A stretch of 64,000 nt of DNA, from positions 1,780 to 65,779 of the forward strand of contig JAEUQA010000076.1 in assembly GCA_016789845.1 (NCBI GenBank), given 5' to 3'. Under the pieces are notes generated by a model. The model saw only the letters and a program-made list of their open reading frames with translations, was not told the origin of the DNA and did no database searches. The translations under genes and the position numbers were made by a program. Source of the DNA: Chromatiales bacterium. Its GTDB lineage: Bacteria; Pseudomonadota; Gammaproteobacteria; Steroidobacterales; GCA-2729495. This document shows, piece by piece, positions 2,640 through 35,011 of this stretch. The stretch's first letter is position 1. Each line of letters starts with the position of its first letter.

Positions 2640-5041
2640 AGTGCGGAGGTCAGGTTGCCGCGGTCGTCCTCGATGAAAGGCAGCCAGGCGATGCCACAGA
2701 ACTGCACCGTGATGTCCGAGGTCGCCGGGCGCACGCTGATTTCCTCCAGCGGCTCGGACTGGGCATCGAAGCCCGCCTCCAGGGCAGCCACCGCCGACTG
2801 AACCTGGGATTCCAGGTCGGCAATCTGCCCCCGCACCTTCGCCACCGTCTCCGTGGCGCGCTCCACGTCGCCGGACTGGCGCTGCGCGTTGCCCGCCTTG
2901 CGCAGGGCCGACGCCGCCCGGCCTGCCGAGGTCGTGGAGATGGCCTTGCGGCCGAGAAAGGCGCCCAGCACCGCCGCGCCCATGGACACGGCGGCATCGA
3001 TCTTCGACCCGGTGGCCTGCTCCTTCTCCCGCCCCACGGCCTGTTCCGCGCGATGCAACCTGTCCTGCAGGCTGGCGTACTTTGCCGCGTGCTGCTGCCG
3101 GAGCCGGGCGATTGCCTGGTCCCGGGCTTCCCGGGCCCGGAGCTGGAGGCGCGCGCGAAACGCGCCCTCGGGCTCGTCCGGCTCCGACACCAGTTTGAGC
3201 GCGGCGCTCCGCCGGAGGACTACGGGCTGCTCGGTGCGCAACCAGGTGCGGAACTGCTCCAGGGCTGATTTGATGATGGCGGGATCCGCGAGCCCGGCTG
3301 GCAACTCCGCGAAGGCTATTCCCGCGTCCGGCTCCTTCGCGAGGCTGGCGGGATCGATTGCCACCGGCTCCGCATTGCGCCAGTCGACGGGTCCGCCGCC
3401 CTCGAGCGCCAGGGCCACGTCGCGCTTCAGGTCCACGCCGTGCTTCGTGCTGACCCACCCGACCCGGGCGGCGCCCAGCAGGCGCGGCTGGTAGACCAGC
3501 CTGCCGGCCGGTGCCGACTTCGGCCTGACGAACGCGACGGGAATGGACGGTGGCAGCACGGGGCGCTGGCCGGAGGCCGGCGGGACCGGCCTCGGGATGA
3601 CCGGCGGTGCCGCGGGCGCTGCTTCCATTGGTCTTGCTGGTGCCGTCGTCAGGCGCCGGATGTCCTCCCGGGTCAGCGGCCCGCGCAGGTAGGCCATCGC
3701 CCAGCGGGTCTGCATCAGCACCGGGCCCTTCTCGTGCACGTTGTGGAGGAGGAAGGTGCGCTTGCCGAGGGACGCCAGCGTGGCATCGAGGCTCCCCGCG
3801 TCGAGCCCTTCGGTGGGCGCCGCGGCCAGCAGCCCGTCCCGCACCCGGTTCCGGTCCTGCTCGGTCTGCAGGCGGCCGATGAACCAGGTGCCGGCGTTGG
3901 ACAGCGCCTTGTAGTCCAGGTCCACGGGGTTCTGGGTGGAGAGCACGACGCCGAGGCCGAAGGCGCGGGCCTGCTTGAGCAGCGTGAGCAGCAGCACCTT
4001 GGACGGCGGCGCGGCGACCGGCGGCAGGAAGCCGAACACCTCGTCCATGTACAGGATCGCGCGCAGCGACGAGGTGCCGGACTGGCTGCGCATCCAGGCC
4101 ACGATCTCGTTCAGCAGCAACGTGACGAAGAACATGCGCTCCGCGTCACCCAGGTGGGCGATGGACATGACGCTCACGCGCGGCCGGCCGTCGGCGGTGA
4201 AGAGGAGCCTGCCGGCGTCCAGCGGTTCGCCCTGGGTCCACGCCTGGAAGCCTGGTGCCGCGAGCAGGTTGTTCAGGCGCATGGCGAGGGTGAAACGGTC
4301 CTTCGCCGGGTAGAAGGACTCGAGGTCGAGTACACCAATCTTCTGGACGCCGGGATTCTGGATCGCGCCGATCAGGCCACCCAGGTCGAGGCTGCGGCCC
4401 TGCTGCCACTGGTGGTCGAGGATCGACGACAGCAGGATGTGCTCCCGGCTGCCCACCGGGTCCGCCTCGATGCCGACCAGCGTCAGCAACCCCGTGACGA
4501 CGCCCCCGATGTGCTGCCGGTAGAGATCCGCGTCCGCGCGCAGCGCCTCGGGCGGCGCGGAGAACGAGCCGAGCACCGACAGCGACAGGCCCGCGGTGCT
4601 GCCGGGCGTGTAGATGGCAAATTCCGCCGCCGCCTTCAGCCGGGCGATGCGCTCCGGCCCCTGGCCGGATCCGGCCAGGCCCTGGCGCCAGGCCTCCGCC
4701 TGGCTCGCGGCGAATTCGGGCACGGTCTTCCCCGCCGCCGCGGCCGCCTGGGCATCCACCCAGGGCTCGAAGTCCGCCGGGTTGAGCTCCGGAAAGGTCA
4801 GCAGCAGGTTGCCCAGGTCGCCCTTGGGATCGATGGCGATGACCGGGATCCGGTCGATGGCAGCCTCCTCGAGCAGGGAGATGCCGAGGCCGGTCTTGCC
4901 GCTGCCGGTCATGCCGATGATCACCGCGTGGGTGGTGAGGTCCGGCGAGTCATAGAGGACGAGCTCGTCCGTGAGCTTGCCGGCCGCCGGGTCCCAGCGG
5001 CGGCCCAGGTAGAACGCTCCGAGCTTCTCGTAGTCCTGCAT
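2636..5041 (-). CDS. HerA/FtsK-like P-loop ATPase (DUF87-type), 801 aa, with a long coiled-coil C-terminal region
   Basis: Walker A GMTGSGKTG; Walker B-like ILYMDEVFGF; VVLSTQNPVDLDYKALSNAGTWFIGRLQ as in HerA-type ATPases; RBS GGAGAA 6 nt before ATG 5041. Confidence 0.75.
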   Translation of the reverse strand: MQDYEKLGAFYLGRRWDPAAGKLTDELVLYDSPDLTTHAVIIGMTGSGKTGLGISLLEEAAIDRIPVIAIDPKGDLGNLLLTFPELNPADFEPWVDAQAAAAAGKTVPEFAASQAEAWRQGLAGSGQGPERIARLKAAAEFAIYTPGSTAGLSLSVLGSFSAPPEALRADADLYRQHIGGVVTGLLTLVGIEADPVGSREHILLSSILDHQWQQGRSLDLGGLIGAIQNPGVQKIGVLDLESFYPAKDRFTLAMRLNNLLAAPGFQAWTQGEPLDAGRLLFTADGRPRVSVMSIAHLGDAERMFFVTLLLNEIVAWMRSQSGTSSLRAILYMDEVFGFLPPVAAPPSKVLLLTLLKQARAFGLGVVLSTQNPVDLDYKALSNAGTWFIGRLQTEQDRNRVRDGLLAAAPTEGLDAGSLDATLASLGKRTFLLHNVHEKGPVLMQTRWAMAYLRGPLTREDIRRLTTAPARPMEAAPAAPPVIPRPVPPASGQRPVLPPSIPVAFVRPKSAPAGRLVYQPRLLGAARVGWVSTKHGVDLKRDVALALEGGGPVDWRNAEPVAIDPASLAKEPDAGIAFAELPAGLADPAIIKSALEQFRTWLRTEQPVVLRRSAALKLVSEPDEPEGAFRARLQLRAREARDQAIARLRQQHAAKYASLQDRLHRAEQAVGREKEQATGSKIDAAVSMGAAVLGAFLGRKAISTTSAGRAASALRKAGNAQRQSGDVERATETVAKVRGQIADLESQVQSAVAALEAGFDAQSEPLEEISVRPATSDITVQFCGIAWLPFIEDDRGNLTSAL

Positions 5042-10171: not shown

Positions 10172-12058
10172 TTGATGATGTTGGTTTCGCGTCTGCAGTC
10201 CCGACGGCAAGCGTCAGCGCCTCGTCGGACCGCCGCGCCCCTGGCCACCTGCGTCCTCGCTCTCGGTGGCTGGTTCGCCCCGGCGCCAGCCGCGCAAGCA
10301 GACGTGATCATCATCGTGGATACCGCCGCCGACGTGATCGCCAACGACGGCGCCTGCTCGCTCCGGGAGGCGATCACCGCGGCCAATAGCAACGCTAACT
10401 ACTTCGGCTGCATCGGCAGCGGGGGCGGCTACGACCTGATCGAGTTCTCGATCGGTGGCGGCACCCCGGTGATCAACCTGGCAACCGCGCTGCCCACGAT
10501 CACTGGGCCCGTCGAGATCAATGGCGGACTGAACCGGGTGGAACTGCGGGGGCCGGGCAGCGGCTCGGGTCTCGTGGGACTGTCACTCTCCGGGGCGGGC
10601 ACGGCTGGCAGCGTCATCCGGAATCTCGTCATCAACGGCTTCACCACCGGCATTTCTCTCGCCACGACGACCAACATCAGCATTCGCGGGAACCGCATCG
10701 GGACCAATGCCGCCGGCACGGCGGCGGCCGCCAACGGGCAGGGCGTCCTGCTGACCAGTGCCACGGGCCAGATCGGCGGCACCAGCGGCGTGACGCCGGG
10801 CGGACCCTGCACCGGCGACTGCAACCTGATCTCCGGTAACACCGGCCCCGGTGTACAACTGTCCACGTACTCCACTGCCATCGTCCGGGGCAACTTCATC
10901 GGCACGAACGCCACCGGAACGTCCGCGATCGCCAACAACAACGGCATTCGTGCCTGGACATCGTTCGTTACGATCGGTGGCACGACGGCCGCGGCGGGCA
11001 ACCTCATTTCCGGCAACGCCTTTGGCATCACCATTAACATCACGATGAATCCGGCCGGCGGGGGCAGCGTGATCCAGGGCAACCGGATTGGGAGCAACGC
11101 CGCCGGTTCGGCGGCCGTGCCGAATAACCTCGGCATAAGTGTCGACCTTGGCAATCACAATTACCCTCTGGTGATTGGCGGCGCAGCCGCCGGGGCCGGC
11201 AACCTGATTTCCGGCAATACCAGCTGGGGCGTTCTGCTCACCGACTCGGACTATGTGGCCATCTACGGCAACCTGATCGGCACGCGGCCCGACGGGATCA
11301 CGCCACTGCCGAATGGCGGAGCAGGCGTCGAGCTGTACTCGTCGCAGTCGAATCTCATCGGCGGCACCGCCGTCCCGGGCCAGGGCAATGTCATCGCCAA
11401 TGGCGCGGTTGGCGTGACGAACGTGTTCAACTCCTATTACAACCAGATACGGGGAAACTCGATCCGGGCCAACACGGGGAAGGGCATCGCGCTGGAGGAT
11501 TTCGCGTCCTTCGCACCTCTGATCAACGGCGTGTCACCCGTCACCGGCACCGCCTGCCCCGGCTGCATCGTTGACGTCTACTCCGATGCTGCCGACGAGG
11601 GGGGCACCTTTCACGGCACGGTCGCGGCGGACGGCGGTGGCAACTGGGTATTCAACGGGCCGGTGGTGGGCCCCTACATCACCGCAACGGCCACGACGGT
11701 TGAGGGCGCCGCGGGGAGCACCTCCGAGTTCTCCGCGCCGTTCGCCTACGCGCCAATGGACAGCGATGGCGACGGCGTGCCCGACTTCATGGACAACTGC
11801 ACGCTGGTGGCCAACCCGACCCAGTGCGACTCGGACGGTGATGGCTACGGCAACCACTGCGACGGCGACCTGAACAGCAACGGGTTCACCAATGCCCAGG
11901 ACACCGGGCTTTTCCGCCAGCAACTCGGGCAGCCCAGCGTCGGCCCGGCCTACAACACGGCTGATCTGAACTGCAACGGCGCCGTAAACGCGCAGGACAC
12001 CGCGTTGTTCCGGAGCCTGCTTGGCCGGCCGCCAGGACCGTCGGGGCTGCATCCCTGA
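10172..12058 (+). CDS. Secreted parallel beta-helix repeat protein with a C-terminal TSP type-3 + dockerin-like module
   Basis: Signal peptide ...APAAQA; DGACSLREAITAANSN motif; many GN.IG.N..G beta-helix repeats; C-terminal DSDGDGVPDFMDNC...[21 protein letters not shown] plus two DxNxNGxxNAQD loops. Confidence 0.8.
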   Translation: MMMLVSRLQSRRQASAPRRTAAPLATCVLALGGWFAPAPAAQADVIIIVDTAADVIANDGACSLREAITAANSNANYFGCIGSGGGYDLIEFSIGGGTPVINLATALPTITGPVEINGGLNRVELRGPGSGSGLVGLSLSGAGTAGSVIRNLVINGFTTGISLATTTNISIRGNRIGTNAAGTAAAANGQGVLLTSATGQIGGTSGVTPGGPCTGDCNLISGNTGPGVQLSTYSTAIVRGNFIGTNATGTSAIANNNGIRAWTSFVTIGGTTAAAGNLISGNAFGITINITMNPAGGGSVIQGNRIGSNAAGSAAVPNNLGISVDLGNHNYPLVIGGAAAGAGNLISGNTSWGVLLTDSDYVAIYGNLIGTRPDGITPLPNGGAGVELYSSQSNLIGGTAVPGQGNVIANGAVGVTNVFNSYYNQIRGNSIRANTGKGIALEDFASFAPLINGVSPVTGTACPGCIVDVYSDAADEGGTFHGTVAADGGGNWVFNGPVVGPYITATATTVEGAAGSTSEFSAPFAYAPMDSDGDGVPDFMDNCTLVANPTQCDSDGDGYGNHCDGDLNSNGFTNAQDTGLFRQQLGQPSVGPAYNTADLNCNGAVNAQDTALFRSLLGRPPGPSGLHP

Positions 12059-12094
12059 GGAACTTGGGGTTCAAGCTCGGCGGGTGGAGAAGCC

Positions 12095-29965: not shown

Positions 29966-31117
29966 TCAGCCCTTGCTGGCCGACTTCACGGCGGCGGCGA
30001 TCCACTCCTGGAATGCCGGGTGCTCGATCAGGCCGCGGTTGGCGAAGGTGTAGTCGAGGCCTTCGAGGTCCTTCTGCAGCCGCGCGTGGAACCCGCCGCG
30101 GGTCAGGATCATCGGCACGATCACCACGTCCTCGCCGCTGTTCTTCGCGTCGATGATCATGGCGCGCAGCACGGCCTTGTTGGCGGCACGCACCTCGGGA
30201 ATGGCGTCATCCTGCAGGGACAGGACCTGCACGTCGGTGAACTTGCTCGACGCCTTGATGGCCTCCGCACTGGTCAGCAGGCGCTGGATCTCGCCCGGGT
30301 TGGCCGCCACGGTCTCCGGGCCGTGGGAGACGATCACCACACGGGTCTTCGCCGGATCCTTCGCGACTTCCAGCGCGTGATCGCGGAGGATGGTGGCCAT
30401 GCGCGGATCGGTGGAGGGCGACTTCGTCATGACCAAGCGGGCGTCGGTCTTCACCCGGGGCACGGTGAGGTAGGGGGCTTCGTCCGCCATGCCCAGGATG
30501 TACCTCCACTGGCCGATCAGCGAGGTATCGTCACCCGGCTCCACCGGCACGACGATGACCGTCTTCACGCCGTGCTCCTTGGTCAGCGTGTCCAGGGCCT
30601 TCTGGATGTGATTCCCGGACATCATCGCCATGCCCGGCGCCACGGTGGTGGGGTACTTCTTGCCCAGGGGCGCAAGCATTTCCCGGAACTGCTCGTTGCC
30701 ACCGCCGCTATAGCCGTGGCCGAGCACCAGCAGGCCCACCTTGCCCTTGATGCCAGCGGCGCTCAGGTCTTCCCACCAGTCCGGCGGCATGCGGGCCATG
30801 TTCGCCATGATCTGCTCGTCGGTGTAGACCGCGTACAGCGGGATCTTCTCGCGCAGCTCCTTCATCTGCTCCGGCGTCATGGCGTGGTCGTGGCCCATCG
30901 CCGCGTGATCCATCTCCCCCATGCCCTGCATGTTCCCCATGCCGCCGCCGGCCGGCGCCGACGTGGAGGCGCTGGCCGTGGCGTCCGTGGCCTTGTCAGC
31001 GTCGGCCGCATTGATGCTGCCGGCACCGATGACCACCAGCGCCGCCCCGCACAGGGTGGCCAGCAGCACGGTCAGGACGGGTCGCTGGGATTTCAGCGCT
31101 GGGAAGGTCTTGCTCAT
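29966..31117 (-). CDS. Exported double-CbiX/SirB-like (class II chelatase fold) protein with a Met/His-rich N-terminal segment
   Basis: Signal/anchor PVLTVLLATLCGAALVVIGAGS; GGGMGNMQGMGEMDHAAMGHDHAM; two CbiX-like halves (LLVLGHGYSG..., VVIVSHGPE...); RBS GGAGAA before ATG 31117. Confidence 0.7.
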   Translation of the reverse strand: MSKTFPALKSQRPVLTVLLATLCGAALVVIGAGSINAADADKATDATASASTSAPAGGGMGNMQGMGEMDHAAMGHDHAMTPEQMKELREKIPLYAVYTDEQIMANMARMPPDWWEDLSAAGIKGKVGLLVLGHGYSGGGNEQFREMLAPLGKKYPTTVAPGMAMMSGNHIQKALDTLTKEHGVKTVIVVPVEPGDDTSLIGQWRYILGMADEAPYLTVPRVKTDARLVMTKSPSTDPRMATILRDHALEVAKDPAKTRVVIVSHGPETVAANPGEIQRLLTSAEAIKASSKFTDVQVLSLQDDAIPEVRAANKAVLRAMIIDAKNSGEDVVIVPMILTRGGFHARLQKDLEGLDYTFANRGLIEHPAFQEWIAAAVKSASKG

Positions 31118-31212
31118 CGAGGTTCTCCGGCAATGTGGCGGGGGGATACCCGCGTGCTCGAAGGAAGATACCAGCCCGGAGCCCGCCGTCGAGTGGTGCG
31201 CGGCATTTTGTC

Positions 31213-31731
31213 TCAGGGGTGCAACCCAGCCGGCGCGCCGTGCTGCGGCGCTTCGCAGTCCGCCGTTCGCCGGCATCGGCGGTCTGGCGACCCCGCCTTC
31301 CCGGCGCGCCATAGAAGCAAGTACGCGCAATAGGCCGCAGCGCTGATGTCAAACGCCAGGCAGAACGCCGGCCACCAGGCTGGCACGCCTGGGGTCACGG
31401 TGCCCGAGGCGTGGAAGAGGTCGAGTATGCCGTGCGCAGCGAGACCGACTACGACCAGCCAGAGATTCCGCCGGAATCCCAGCACCGCGGTCACCACAAA
31501 GGCTGCCATGACCATTGCCTCCGGCCAAAGGCTATTGGCAGAGTCACCGATCGCAGCAAACAGCACGTAGTACGAGGCAACGACCATGAGAATGGCTGGA
31601 TAGAAGCCCCGCTCCCGGTCGAATCCGGCGACCGAACCAAGCAGCGCCACCAGCGCGGCCGTCGCAATCCCGATGATGTAGCTCACAATGCCCTCCCGCG
31701 TGCCATGGGGCATGTGCCCCGCCTGAGCCAT
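31213..31731 (-). CDS. Hypothetical multi-pass membrane protein
   Basis: Four or five hydrophobic helices (IVSYIIGIATAALVALLG, ILMVVASYYVLFAAIG, ...); divergent from the AraC gene; start uncertain. Confidence 0.5.
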   Translation of the reverse strand: MAQAGHMPHGTREGIVSYIIGIATAALVALLGSVAGFDRERGFYPAILMVVASYYVLFAAIGDSANSLWPEAMVMAAFVVTAVLGFRRNLWLVVVGLAAHGILDLFHASGTVTPGVPAWWPAFCLAFDISAAAYCAYLLLWRAGKAGSPDRRCRRTADCEAPQHGAPAGLHP

Positions 31732-31831
31732 CAGGATGGCAGGCGTGCCGTATCCCGGCTTGTATGCAGGGGCTGATGTTGCGGCAACAGGCCGGGTCGT
31801 AATATGGCTGGTCGCCATAGGAGGGGTATCG

Positions 31832-32614
31832 ATGCCCAGGACGGTCGGCAATGCCCAGTACTTTCCCTGGGATGGCGGCTCGATATTCGTTGGCAGGTCG
31901 GGCGTGTTTCCCGTGCACGCCCATCAGGCAATCCAGATCTGCTTTCTTTTCGATGGTTGCATCCGGTTGCGTGCCAGGGACGATGCCCCGTGGGTCGACT
32001 ATGGGATTGCCGTTGTCCCGTCGCAGCAACCCCATGGGATGGACGGCTCCGGTGTTCAATACGGCGCCGTGGTCTTTGTCGAGCCCGAGACCCGCGAAGG
32101 CCGGATGCTGACTGAGCGTTGCTCGGGCGCTGGCATTACGTCAGCCGACCGGTCGCTGATCGCCCCGGTCCTCCCCGACCTGGTTTCGGCGGTGCGCGAA
32201 CGGCGTGGCCGCGAGGCGATCGTGACAGCGGCCCGGCGCCTGGTGCAGGCGCTGACCCGGGAGTCGGAACCGTCCGTGGTCAGCGACGAGCGGATCATTC
32301 GCGCGGTGGCTTACATCAACAGCAATCTGCAGAGGGCGATCACGCTGGAGCAGGTGGCGGCGGTGGCGCACCTGTCGCCGAGCCGCTTCCGGCACCTGTT
32401 TGCCGAACAGACCGGCACGGGCCTGCGCCCGTACATTCTCTGGCGGCGCTTCGTCAGCGTCTGGGAGCACACGATGCGCGGTGCCTCCCTGTCGGAGGCC
32501 GCTCACGCCGCGGGGTTTGCAGACTCCGCCCACCTCACGCGCACGTGCCGGCGCATGATGGGCATACCTCCTTCATTGTTCGACGTCTCCGGAACGGGCC
32601 CAGCCGACGAGTGA
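31832..32614 (+). CDS. AraC-family transcriptional regulator
   Basis: C-terminal HTH pair: ITLEQVAAVAHLSPSRFRHLFAEQTG...AAHAAGFADSAHLTRTCRRMMG; RBS AGGAGGGG at 31819-31826. Confidence 0.85.
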   Translation: MPRTVGNAQYFPWDGGSIFVGRSGVFPVHAHQAIQICFLFDGCIRLRARDDAPWVDYGIAVVPSQQPHGMDGSGVQYGAVVFVEPETREGRMLTERCSGAGITSADRSLIAPVLPDLVSAVRERRGREAIVTAARRLVQALTRESEPSVVSDERIIRAVAYINSNLQRAITLEQVAAVAHLSPSRFRHLFAEQTGTGLRPYILWRRFVSVWEHTMRGASLSEAAHAAGFADSAHLTRTCRRMMGIPPSLFDVSGTGPADE

Positions 32615-32808
32615 GGAAAGCTCAGGGTGGCAATCGTTGCCCACCCGAGCACGAACGAGGCAACGGCTGCGAGTATCAGCGTTGGGGCGGCGGGTGGAAC
32701 CGCCACGCCGGCACCCGCGGGCCCCGGTCCAGCCACCAGCAGGTACAGGTAGAGGACCGGGGCCACCAGGGCCAGAAAGCCGATTCCGAGCATGAGTTGT
32801 CGAGCCAT
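32503..32808 (-). CDS. Possible small two-TM membrane protein downstream of the Cys-rich ORF
   Basis: GGAGA 6 nt before ATG 32808; MARQLMLGIGFLALVAPVLYLYLLVAG...TLILAAVASFVLGWATIATL. Its 3' end overlaps the convergent AraC gene by about 110 nt, which lowers confidence. Confidence 0.35.
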   Translation of the reverse strand: MARQLMLGIGFLALVAPVLYLYLLVAGPGPAGAGVAVPPAAPTLILAAVASFVLGWATIATLSFPHSSAGPVPETSNNEGGMPIMRRHVRVRWAESANPAA

Positions 32809-32848
32809 GATCATTCTCCATGCGTTTCTGGCCACGTGAGTTGTCTTC

Positions 32849-32998
32849 CTAGCTCTGCGCGCAGGCGCAGTCGTCGCCGCAGCCGCACTGCGGGCCGCAG
32901 GCGCACTCGTGCGGCTCCGCGGATGCCGGGTTATCGCAGGTGCAGTTCGTGCAGGCGCAGGGGTTGCAGTTGCAGAGGCGGTTCGTGCTGGTATCCAT
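32849..32998 (-). CDS. 49-aa cysteine-rich metallothionein-like protein (12 Cys); below the ORF-track length cutoff
   Basis: Hand translation: MDTSTNRLCNCNPCACTNCTCDNPASAEPHECACGPQCGCGDDCACAQS*. AGGAGA lies 6 nt upstream of ATG 32998. GC3-rich codons match the genome. Confidence 0.75.
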   Translation of the reverse strand: MDTSTNRLCNCNPCACTNCTCDNPASAEPHECACGPQCGCGDDCACAQS

Positions 32999-33154
32999 GA
33001 GTCGTCTCCTGTTGAGGTAAGGTTGGTCGTCACGGAGCCCACTCTAGGGGCGGCCATCGTCGGCGGCTTGAATGAAGGGGCTGTTTGCGCGGGGATGGAA
33101 ATGCGAGCGCATAATCCCCCTGTCAGCACCACATGCGAGAGCTAGGGGACTCCC

Positions 33155-35011
33155 GTGTTGGAAACCTCTCTTGAGGGCCGGGGCCGACCGGAACCCGGGC
33201 GGGCCGTCCGCTGTTCATTGGGGTTGATGCTGTCGACCCTTGTCGCAGCGACATTCGCCACCCCGGCGTGGTCTCAATCCACCAGCCCGTCTCCCGTGGC
33301 GCAATCGCCGAAGCCAGGGGAGCGCGCCTTCACCCCTGGTACCTGGTCGCGCCTTGAGGAACTGCCGGCGGGACGCTTGCGCGCCCGCCTGGAGCAATTG
33401 CCGCCGGCTGCGCGCCAACGCACTCTGGAAAAACTGCGGAGGGTCCCCTTTCCAGAGCAGGATTTCCTTGGCTCCATGAGGGTTGACCGGGACGGTGGCA
33501 TCTTCTATGCGGACTCCTTTGGCGTGGAAGTCCCCGCGGACCGCGGGACGACTGATAGTGGCACCACTGAATCCGAAGGCGAAGTGCCCGTGAGTCCCTT
33601 TCCGGCGGAGCTGATACTCCATAGTCGCCCGGGGTCATCGTTCAGAATCTATCTGGATTTCGACGGCGAGAACGTCAGTTCATCTCTCTGGAATACCTAC
33701 GATGAACTCGGCCGGGCCAGCATTCCTGCCGTGCCCTATAGCCAGGATGGTGATCGCACGACCTTCAGCGCGGATGAGCGGCGCTACATCAGGGAGACCT
33801 GGCAGCGGGTTGCCGAGGACTTCGCGCCCTTCAACGTTGACGTCACGACCGAACAGCCGGGTGCGCCGGGTGCGTTCACCGTGCATGTCCTGGTAACCTC
33901 GAACTACGATGCGAATGGCCAGTTGAACCCGTTTGGGAACTACGGCGGAGTGGCCTACCTGGACACCTGGGGACAGAGCAACAACTACGTCTGGTGTTAC
34001 GTGTCCGGCGCCGCGATTGGCGAGTGCGCCTCGCACGAAACCGGGCACACCCTCAGCCTGACTCACGATGGCCTGACGGGGTGCCCGAACCCGGCGGACT
34101 GCGAGTACTACAGCGGGCACGGGACCGGTCCTGCGTCATGGGCCCCGATCATGGGCAATTCCTACTCCCGGAACGTGACGCAGTGGTCGCAAGGCGAATA
34201 TTACCGAGCCAACAACAGCCAGGACGACCGGTACGAGATTGTGCAGCGCCTGGGCTACCGTGCCGACGACCACGGCAACAGCCGGGCCAGTGCAACGCCA
34301 CTCGTCATTACAGCCGGGCGGATTGAATCCACGACCCCGGAGAGTGATCCCTACGACACGAATCCGGCCAACAAGGGCGTGATGCAGGGGGGCGGGGACG
34401 CCGCGGATGTGTTCTCCTTTGCCTGGTCGGGGCCAATCAATCTGTCGGTCAAGCCGTGGGTTGTGCCGGGAGGCTATACCCTGGGCGGGAACCTGGACGT
34501 CCGCGCAGAGGTCCAGGATGCCAGCGGGATTGCGGTCGTGAGCAGTGACCCATCGGCTACGACCGAGGCGTTCATGCAGGGCGACCTGCCGGCGGGGAAC
34601 TACTACCTCGTCGTGGAGAACTCGGGGGTGGGCAATCCGTTCGCCTCCAGCCCGGACGGGTACACGACTTACGGGAGCATGGGTCAGTTCTTCATCAGTG
34701 CCACCGGTGGCGACGCGGATGGCGACGGCGTGGCGGACGCCATCGACAACTGCAGGACAGTGGCCAACCCGACGCAGTGCGACTCCGACGGCGACGGCTA
34801 TGGCAATGCCTGTGATGGGGACCTCAACAACACCGGCGCCACCAATGCCCAGGACACCACGCTCTTCCGCCAGCAACTCGGCCAGCCCAGCACCGGTCCC
34901 GGCTATAACAAGGCCGACATCAACTGCAACGGGGCCGTGAACGCCCAGGACACGACGCTGTTCCGGCAGCTGCTCGGCAAGCCTCCGGGGCCGTCGGGGC
35001 TGCAGCCGTGA
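33155..35011 (+). CDS. Secreted metzincin-like zinc metalloprotease with PPC-like and TSP3 + dockerin-like C-terminal domains
   Basis: Signal peptide ...[10 protein letters not shown]; [11 protein letters not shown] zinc motif; [11 protein letters not shown] pre-peptidase-C-like block; C-terminal [14 protein letters not shown]...[21 protein letters not shown]... Confidence 0.8.

Follow-up and report, generated by a model that had tools for sequence, protein, structure and literature searches.

Genes and features of the locus

The DNA analyzed here, called the window throughout, is a stretch of 64,000 nt from a metagenome-assembled genome (MAG) of a Chromatiales bacterium (contig JAEUQA010000076.1). 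Its minus strand carries a short open reading frame (ORF) for a cysteine-rich, metallothionein (MT)-like peptide, followed by a gene for a small membrane protein with two predicted transmembrane helices (2-TM). A gene for an AraC-family regulator converges on this pair from the plus strand. The features of this locus are as follows:

32849..32998, minus strand: MT-like gene, 49 aa with 12 Cys, stop codon included; recognized from its translation, homologues, Cys invariance and ratio of nonsynonymous to synonymous differences (pN/pS).
33005..33010, minus strand: Shine-Dalgarno site AGGAGA, 6 nt 5' of the ATG; GGAG is in the same place in nine of nine aligned loci.
33041..33046, minus strand: -10-like hexamer TAGAGT, 20 nt after the operator box in all nine metagenomic loci.
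33067..33082, minus strand: operator box AGCCCCTTCATTCAAG, a predicted AraC site of 16 bp that reaches the -35 position; the sole exact match in the window.
32503..32808, minus strand: gene of the 2-TM protein, 101 aa, with GGAGA 6 nt before the ATG; called as a gene in loci L002, L003, L006, L011 and L012.
32503..32614, both strands: convergent 3' overlap of 112 nt between the 2-TM gene and araC, found in every Chromatiales-type locus.
31832..32614, plus strand: AraC-family regulator, 260 aa; recognized from a match to HTH_18, identity to MBL8202098.1, an AlphaFold2 model and Foldseek.

The MT-like ORF is a coding gene

A first-pass annotation of the window had proposed that the minus strand encodes an overlooked 49-aa, 12-Cys peptide between an ATG at 32998 and a TAG at 32849. 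Translation of this interval agrees with the proposal and gives MDTSTNRLCNCNPCACTNCTCDNPASAEPHECACGPQCGCGDDCACAQS*. Cysteine makes up 12 of the 49 residues (24.5%, reported as 24%), and the layout is the one described, CxCxxCxCxxCxC ... CxCxxxCxCxxxCxC, which contains six CxC pairs. The window peptide has no aromatic residue (Phe, Tyr or Trp), and each of its Cys codons is TGC. The AGGAGA that had been placed 6 nt before the ATG is present, with its GGAG conserved, and the codons mostly end in G or C, as had been noted. The G+C content at codon positions 1, 2 and 3 is 0.48, 0.66 and 0.94, while the window as a whole has 68% G+C.

A six-frame scan of the window found 12 Cys in 49 residues at this ORF only, so its Cys density is above chance. 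The runner-up stretches, with 10 to 11 Cys, are either interrupted by stops or consist of off-frame text rich in Arg, Ser and Pro. Among six close full-length members of the family, all 12 Cys columns are invariant, compared to 10 of the 37 other columns (Fisher p = 7e-6). TGC and TGT are swapped synonymously at Cys codons among the relatives. The pN/pS ratio is 0.56 in the MT-like frame, the lowest of the six frames (0.88-1.39 in the other five), which argues for frame-specific purifying selection. The start codon and Shine-Dalgarno site are also kept across the aligned loci. Because of the Cys invariance, the TGC/TGT swaps, the frame-specific pN/pS and the conserved start, we regard the ORF as coding, and it is almost certainly a real, translated gene. 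This bears out the first-pass annotation, which had called it a gene; conservation extends over the ORF, its Shine-Dalgarno site, the promoter and the operator.

That annotation had also called the gene unannotated. Neither the MT-like peptide nor the 101-aa ORF is in a collection of 15 billion proteins, while the adjacent AraC protein is present there (MBL8202098.1), so the label is correct. The long ORFs across this region (32119..33000 and 32909..33145 on the plus strand, 32503..33132 on the minus strand) had been set aside as off-frame artefacts, and their pN/pS of about 1 and their absence from the same collection agree with that judgement. An AlphaFold2 model of the metal-free peptide is disordered (pLDDT 48.6), which is compatible with an MT and not diagnostic of one.

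Homologues of the peptide

An exhaustive phmmer search with the single sequence over 1.84 billion representative proteins gave three matches of 48-50 aa (E 7.5e-8 to 1.1e-5). A subsequent profile search raised the called homologues to nine, all unnamed or labeled 'hypothetical' (identifiers within P0001-P0010). Further homologues, none of them called as a gene, are present in Zemynaea arenosa (62 aa), on metagenome contig L005 (51 aa, the one extra locus from a metagenome scan), on plasmid 2 of Gemmatirosa kalamazoonensis (55 aa, 14 Cys) and on plasmid pMTS1 of Cupriavidus sp. P-10 (63 aa, 14 Cys). The first-pass annotation had suggested a search for homologous small ORFs with the frame and Cys positions kept, and 13 other distinct homologues are now known from Gammaproteobacteria MAGs, Cupriavidus, Zemynaea and Gemmatirosa. 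The family ranges from 49 to 63 aa, and the high Cys and CxC content and the lack of aromatics hold across its members. In an alignment of 12 sequences (A5), C9, C11, C14, C19, C21, C34, C38, C40 and C44 are invariant, and C32, G35, G41 and C46 are almost invariant. The string C-x-C-N-P-C is invariant in nine of nine sequences of a second alignment (A2); in Cupriavidus, Zemynaea and Gemmatirosa it is loosened to CxCxxC.

Several searches with the peptide found little. A word-indexed protein search with the single MT-like sequence gave no match. A scan of reference-genome contigs with single-sequence 8-mer patterns returned Zemynaea only; these patterns were over-specific and absence elsewhere is not inferable from them. 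tblastn of the peptide against plasmids gave no match, though the Cupriavidus and Gemmatirosa plasmids carry homologues, probably due to low-complexity masking or divergence. These two plasmid homologues were located via a search with the regulator, not the peptide.

Gene order and the 2-TM protein

In the Chromatiales-type loci, the order is constant: the MT-like gene, the 101-aa gene and then the convergent 260-aa AraC gene with its 112-nt overlap. This type comprises the window, L002, L003/L004, L006/L007, L010/L011 and L012, with L013 incomplete, and the genes flanking the module vary between loci. A second architecture, seen in L008/L009, L005, Gemmatirosa and Cupriavidus, has AraC directly upstream on the same strand and no 2-TM gene. 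With both architectures counted, AraC adjoins the MT-like gene in 10 distinct loci.

The 101-aa ORF begins 40 nt downstream of the MT-like gene, where a possible 2-TM mini-protein had been suspected; the ORF is real and co-inherited with the MT-like gene. Its product has two predicted hydrophobic helices and a basic tail and matches no Pfam or NCBIfam family. Over the 63 codons outside the araC overlap its pN/pS is 0.54. The conserved tail, ...PIMRRHVRVRWAESANPAA, covers the last ~20 residues and is the reverse-strand image of the araC helix-turn-helix, so its conservation is uninformative on the function of the 2-TM protein. The MT-like and 101-aa genes are predicted to be co-transcribed as a two-gene operon. 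Readthrough of the induced operon would run antisense to the 3' end of araC, and transcriptional interference or feedback is conceivable there.

The first-pass annotation had listed an AraC regulator and a CbiX-like protein as neighbors. Both were placed correctly. The CbiX-like gene, however, lies outside the conserved module and is absent from every other locus, and as a part of the module it was rejected. The relevant partner is the AraC regulator together with its operator, and this regulator had been mentioned merely as a neighbor.

A thioredoxin-like gene (PF14595) is divergent from the MT-like gene at L002 7189..7842, L006 5199..5840, L010 815..1474 and L012 867..1514. In these four distinct loci it borders the intergenic region that contains the box. 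It is absent from the window and may be a member of the regulon.

Promoter and operator box

The upstream regions have a common plan in nine of nine aligned loci: AGCCnnTTCnTTCAAG, 20 non-conserved nt, a hexamer, about 40 nt, GGAG and the ATG. The hexamer is TAGAGT, TACAGT or TAGATT, and in each of the nine metagenomic loci its distance from the box is exactly 20 nt; the geometry box-N20-nAnnnT recurs in 15 of 17 box instances. Each related locus has one box match, always 5' of the MT-like gene. At the standard 17-nt spacing the -35 hexamer of the window promoter reads AAGCCG, and a scan for consensus sigma-70 promoters found none. This missing match is consistent with an activator-dependent promoter. 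A box that overlaps the -35 position is the usual class II arrangement of AraC/XylS activators, and by analogy the MT-like promoter looks activator-dependent with class II AraC geometry. An Rfam scan of the window gave no match.

A box with two mismatches, AGCCCCTGCATACAAG, at 31759..31774 on the minus strand was considered as a second operator and rejected, since it is at chance level and not conserved. It points to a membrane ORF at 31213..31851 (minus strand, up to 212 aa), whose faint MerC-like match (E 0.29) is also at chance level.

An AraC-type regulator with a predicted cupin domain

The window regulator is 100% identical to P0011 (MBL8202098.1, 'MAG: Chromatiales bacterium'). Its DNA-binding region matches PF12833 (HTH_18, E 2.3e-14) and PF00165 (E 4.8e-11), both above the cut-off. 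The AlphaFold2 model (pLDDT 81.6) has an N-terminal beta-barrel and two helix-turn-helix units. Foldseek matched ToxT, Rns, CsvR and CuxR over the full length (E 1e-8 to 1e-6) and free-standing cupins over the N-terminal domain; the fold of the DNA-binding domain matches AraC, AdpA and ToxT.

Metal-binding cupins carry their ligands in the motifs G-x5-7-HxH-x3-4-[EQ]-x6-G and P-x-G-x2-H. In its predicted barrel, the regulator contains G21-x7-H29-A-H31-x3-Q35-x6-G42 and P63-x4-H68, both invariant, as counterparts of these two motifs. H29-A-H31-x-A-I-Q35, H68 and E84-P-E86 do not vary among 43 close homologues and 5 distant ones (36-69% identity), and the helix-turn-helix residues are conserved down to 36% identity. 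Cys37 was considered as a further ligand and rejected because it is not conserved in the distant homologues. The subfamily counts 3,363 proteins at E<=1e-20, far above the nine called MT-like proteins.

The regulator resembles ToxT, Rns, CsvR, CuxR and AraC in its HTH_18 domain, its full-length fold and its asymmetric 16-bp site over the -35 position, which is typical of class II activators. It differs from them in sequence (12-15% identity), and its subfamily keeps HxHxxxQ...H. Regulators of the ToxT/Rns/CsvR/CuxR/AraC type bind fatty acids, sugars or c-di-GMP. An AraC-type metal sensor that controls a metallothionein is not known to us, and literature searches found no AraC-regulated metallothionein, no AraC/cupin metal sensor and no link between AraC and phytochelatin synthase (PCS). 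From the arrangement of the loci, it is very probable that the AraC protein regulates the MT-like gene through the box. Direct sensing of a metal at the modeled cupin site is a more tentative proposal, and we consider it possible rather than probable.

The same regulator and box at other targets

In Steroidobacteraceae (L014-L017), a regulator 69% identical to that of the window is convergent with a PCS-like gene (PF05023, E 1.7e-79). The region upstream of the PCS-like gene contains two copies of AGCCCCTTCGTTCAAT, each with GACACT 20 nt downstream. In L015 (5450..5650, minus strand) this promoter is a 93-nt tandem duplication with one box and one GACACT per copy. The PCS-linked regulator is 72% identical to the MT-linked regulator of L008, while the L008 and window regulators are 65% identical. 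Because the PCS-linked regulator is closer to that of L008 than the window regulator is, targets have been exchanged within one orthologous group.

In Gemmatirosa, AraC is followed by a box with the 55-aa MT-like ORF, then by a pair of boxes 21 bp from each other and finally by the genes of a YtkA-like lipoprotein and a di-haem CCP_MauG protein (L018 3275..5392, G. kalamazoonensis plasmid 2, NZ_CP007130.1). The MT-like ORF lies at 3392..3559, and the YtkA-like lipoprotein contains MPQHGHG. The di-haem protein scores best with MauG/MbnH models, below the cut-off, and not with classical peroxidases. On plasmid pPNAP03 of Polaromonas naphthalenivorans (L019 3205..5386), the genes of a DUF3703+YtkA protein and a CCP_MauG protein lie behind an exact box and are convergent with the regulator; a literature search on DUF3703 found nothing relevant.

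In Cupriavidus sp. P-10, AraC and the box are followed by the 63-aa MT-like ORF, a His-rich exported protein, OEP, MFP and an RND pump. With 759 bits, the pump exceeds the 701-bit cut-off of the NCBIfam model 'CusA/CzcA family heavy metal efflux RND transporter'. The cluster lies at ~231.2-238.9 kb of pMTS1 (NZ_AP025172.1; L020 2971..5859 and L021 415..6904, with the MT-like ORF at L020 3847..4038). Its gene content makes it a candidate new cluster for heavy-metal efflux with an MT-like gene at its head, and the strain is cultured. Comparison of these genomes shows that regulator, box and predicted target go together in three phyla.

The Zemynaea homologue has a different promoter. The 62-aa ORF of Z. 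arenosa (1249..1437 of L001, NZ_SPVF01000050.1) lies between greA-like and UPF0047/spoT-like genes and has no AraC neighbor. It is related to the family with an hhalign probability of 97.6% (E 4.5e-12, 45 columns). Its promoter reads TTGACC-TTCCCATGATGGGAAGCTT-CATCGT (TTGACCTTCCCATGATGGGAAGCTT-CATCGT) and holds a perfect 8-nt inverted repeat, so that an operator ACCTTCCC-ATGAT-GGGAAGCT sits inside a promoter with a 19-bp spacer (L001 1180..1215). The published CueR signal is ACCTTCCC-(5)-TGGAAGGT in a promoter with a 19-bp spacer (PMC1526738). The Zemynaea operator matches it at eight of eight positions in the left half and six of eight in the right half, which points to control of this copy by Cu(I), Ag(I) or Au(I). 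The palindrome in a 19-bp spacer is the likeness to the copper regulon of the MerR-family regulators CueR/HmrR. The window promoter differs, since its spacer has no palindrome and is not conserved in sequence, and an upstream AraC box is found there instead.

Comparison with known metallothioneins

The peptide is MT-like by operational criteria of sequence and context and lies outside all curated MT families. It is of low mass, has more than 15% Cys in CxC and CxxC arrangements and lacks aromatics. Its context includes the Cupriavidus efflux operon, the CueR/HmrR-type operator of Zemynaea and the PCS-like gene behind the same regulator and box. When the window peptide and nine family members were scanned against Pfam and NCBIfam, there was no match to BmtA/SmtA or any other bacterial MT at E<=10; Metallothio_Euk was matched at E 6.4 in two of the nine members.

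SmtA/BmtA proteins (PF02069, SmtA, PmtA) are likewise small Cys-rich bacterial peptides, described as cytoplasmic and with a dedicated metal-responsive regulator. The N-terminal CxCxPCxC is common to both (CACEPCLC in SmtA, CNCNPCAC in the window), an echo that the first-pass annotation had pointed out. The likeness ends there: hhalign aligns 14 N-terminal columns (residues 4-17) with a probability of 10.6%, and the SmtA chains in the PDB do not match the peptide at E<=10. SmtA/BmtA proteins have 8-10 Cys, His ligands and the zinc-finger-like core GxYYCSxxCAxGH, whereas the present family has 12-14 Cys and the window peptide has neither this motif, nor a conserved His, nor aromatics. The missing core had been noticed earlier, and the distinction from SmtA/BmtA drawn from it is upheld by these searches. 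The regulators also differ, SmtB (ArsR family) and CadR (MerR family) compared to an AraC-type neighbor here.

The best PDB sequence match is wheat Ec-1 (plant type 4, 2kak), with which the peptide has the strings CxCNPCxC and CxCGxxCxC in common. However, E is 1 against the PDB, hhalign aligns seven columns (the CxCNPCA heptad) and there is no Pfam match. Ec-1 also has His ligands and three Cys-rich regions, unlike the window peptide, and the resemblance is probably convergent and at the level of motifs. The vertebrate beta domain and the Neurospora Cu-MT have CxC pairs and no aromatics and are disordered without metal. The window peptide resembles these eukaryotic CxC-type MTs in its CxC runs at 2-3-residue spacing, its two blocks and its lack of aromatics, but there is no detectable sequence relationship, and its origin and regulation are bacterial. 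MymT is a mycobacterial Cu(I) MT of ~5 kDa, long overlooked by annotation and induced by copper via RicR (CsoR family). The present peptide is likewise an overlooked bacterial Cys-rich peptide of ~5 kDa; it differs in Cys spacing, in having an AraC regulator rather than RicR and in showing no similarity to MymT in any search.

We found no published description of the present family; soil-metagenome listings of MT genes may include a member. The bacterial MTs of a 2025 review are the SmtA/BmtA type, PmtA and MymT only (PMC12193353).

Proposed function and alternative explanations

The reading that we favor, with a probability of about two in three, is that the peptide is an inducible cytoplasmic sequestrator of thiophilic metals, switched by the AraC regulator, and that it represents a new MT-like family. 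The peptide has two six-Cys blocks, (CxC-x2)2-CxC and (CxC-x3)2-CxC, joined by a Pro/Ala linker of ~10 residues. It would probably be disordered when metal-free and fold around metal-thiolate clusters with Cu(I), Cd(II) or Zn(II). Once folded, it would buffer or sequester thiophilic ions in the cytoplasm. Its gene would be the first of a two-gene operon with the 101-aa two-helix membrane protein, behind a promoter with a usable -10 (TAGAGT) and no -35, in which the AGCCnnTTCnTTCAAG box ends 20 nt upstream of the -10. The convergent AraC protein would be an activator; activation rather than repression is what we infer. Its cupin sensor, HxH-x3-Q ... H, would sense a stress, possibly the metal itself, and then switch the operon on. 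Binding of metal as thiolates is a likely biochemical property of the peptide, judging from its composition and genomic associations. The involvement of metals is supported by four independent associations: the PCS-like gene, the Cupriavidus efflux operon, the Zemynaea operator and the YtkA/MauG pairs.

Several observations weigh against this reading. Searches of Pfam, NCBIfam and the PDB found no significant similarity to any curated MT family, the window is not a metal-resistance island, and a pN/pS of 0.56 is just moderate constraint. Two natural alleles, P0009 and P0002, lack the C-terminal Cys block. In P0009 (L010 1611..1784, L011 1591..1764), the CNPC block is duplicated and the C-terminal half is free of Cys; this allele is identical in two independent samples. 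The C-terminal cluster may be dispensable or separable, or the gene may be decaying or dispensable in some lineages. Di-haem peroxidase-like proteins are among the box-controlled set, and bacterial PCS-like enzymes mainly hydrolyse glutathione. Because of these di-haem proteins and the glutathione-acting PCS-like enzymes, an oxidant or thiol-stress regulon fits as well.

The main rival starts from this last point and makes the peptide a sacrificial thiol or redox buffer in a regulon for oxidants and electrophiles (H2O2, HOCl, quinones), with a cupin that senses oxidation, for example via Fe or Mn. In Gemmatirosa and Polaromonas the same box does stand before genes of the di-haem cytochrome c peroxidase/MauG type, PCS-like enzymes have glutathione as their substrate, and scavenging of radicals is a known property of metallothioneins. 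The divergent thioredoxin-like gene also lies upstream in four distinct loci (L002, L006/L007, L010/L011 and L012). A thiol sink, however, needs neither strict CxC spacing nor 12 invariant Cys, both of which fit the geometry of metal clusters. The Cupriavidus copy heads an efflux operon of the CusA/CzcA type, the Zemynaea copy has a CueR/HmrR-type operator, and the di-haem proteins score best on MauG/MbnH models (below the cut-off) rather than as classical peroxidases. We therefore consider a redox buffer unlikely, while giving it more weight than the remaining explanations. One of these is that the peptide is no bulk sequestrator and serves as a metal-dependent partner of AraC (a co-sensor, anti-activator or metallochaperone) that feeds back on the regulator. 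Such a role would suit a small peptide that is disordered in the model, its one-to-one linkage to AraC in 10 distinct loci and its position as the sole obvious target in several. It is improbable, since orthologous regulators have other targets without an MT-like gene (L015, L019) and the Zemynaea copy has no AraC neighbor.

Since the ORF is short and Cys-rich and the gene of a small membrane protein comes after it, it could also be read as the precursor of a modified, exported peptide of the thioether or metallophore type, with the 2-TM protein in export or immunity. This is very improbable: none of the loci has a conserved radical-SAM enzyme, cyclase, protease or ABC exporter next to the ORF, the peptide has no leader/core division or cleavage motif, and L008, L005, Gemmatirosa and Cupriavidus have no 2-TM gene. 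Just as little weight can be given to the explanation that there is no gene and that the Cys-rich frame is a by-product of G+C-rich DNA or of another frame, such as 32503..33132 on the minus strand. Stops are rare in every frame at 68% G+C, so open frames alone mean little, and the ORF was skipped by the gene callers in the source MAG and in RefSeq replicons. Against this stand the low pN/pS of this frame alone, the invariant Cys, the conservation of Shine-Dalgarno site, start, promoter and operator, and the homologues in three phyla, while the alternative frames have a pN/pS of about 1 and several carry stops in distant loci.

Metal sequestration under AraC control thus remains the reading we prefer. 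A broader proposal goes beyond it and is speculative: the AraC/cupin proteins may be an unrecognized family of metal-sensing activators that bind metal at HxHxxxQ...H and, through one box, control interchangeable defenses against thiophilic metals (MT, PCS-like enzymes, CusA/CzcA-type pumps and YtkA/MauG-like proteins) in Pseudomonadota and Gemmatimonadota. To our knowledge, an AraC/cupin class is absent from the standard list of bacterial metal sensors.

Other features of the window

The exported CbiX-like protein (29966..31330, minus strand; Pfam E 9e-5) has a Met/His-rich stretch, MGNMQGMGEMDHAAMGHDHAM, that recalls periplasmic Cu(I)-binding motifs. On the plus strand, 33155..35011 encodes a 618-aa secreted protein with a reprolysin-like metallopeptidase domain, thrombospondin type 3 repeats and a dockerin. 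The same C-terminal repeats occur near the module in a 618-aa protein in L006 and a 638-aa protein in L002, and a related stretch lies elsewhere in the window, at ~11759..12064.

Significance

The family is nearly invisible to gene callers, with nine called proteins among 5.8 billion clusters, and gene calling has passed over the MT-like gene in the RefSeq replicons of both Cupriavidus sp. P-10 and Gemmatirosa kalamazoonensis. It is a concrete case of the systematic loss of small Cys-rich genes in the annotation of high-G+C genomes. Genetics is feasible, since at least three of the carrier strains are in culture (Cupriavidus sp. P-10, G. kalamazoonensis KBS708 and Polaromonas naphthalenivorans CJ2). 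If the metal reading is true, the peptides would provide compact new metal-binding scaffolds for bioremediation and biosensing, and the AraC/cupin-box pair would be a ready-made biosensor part. The combination of an AraC/cupin protein, a sharp operator and interchangeable targets is a testable candidate for a new class of metal- or thiol-stress-responsive activators. Few bacterial MT types have been characterized. A further family, spread over at least three phyla, with a CxC spacing like that of eukaryotes and without His ligands, would widen that picture.

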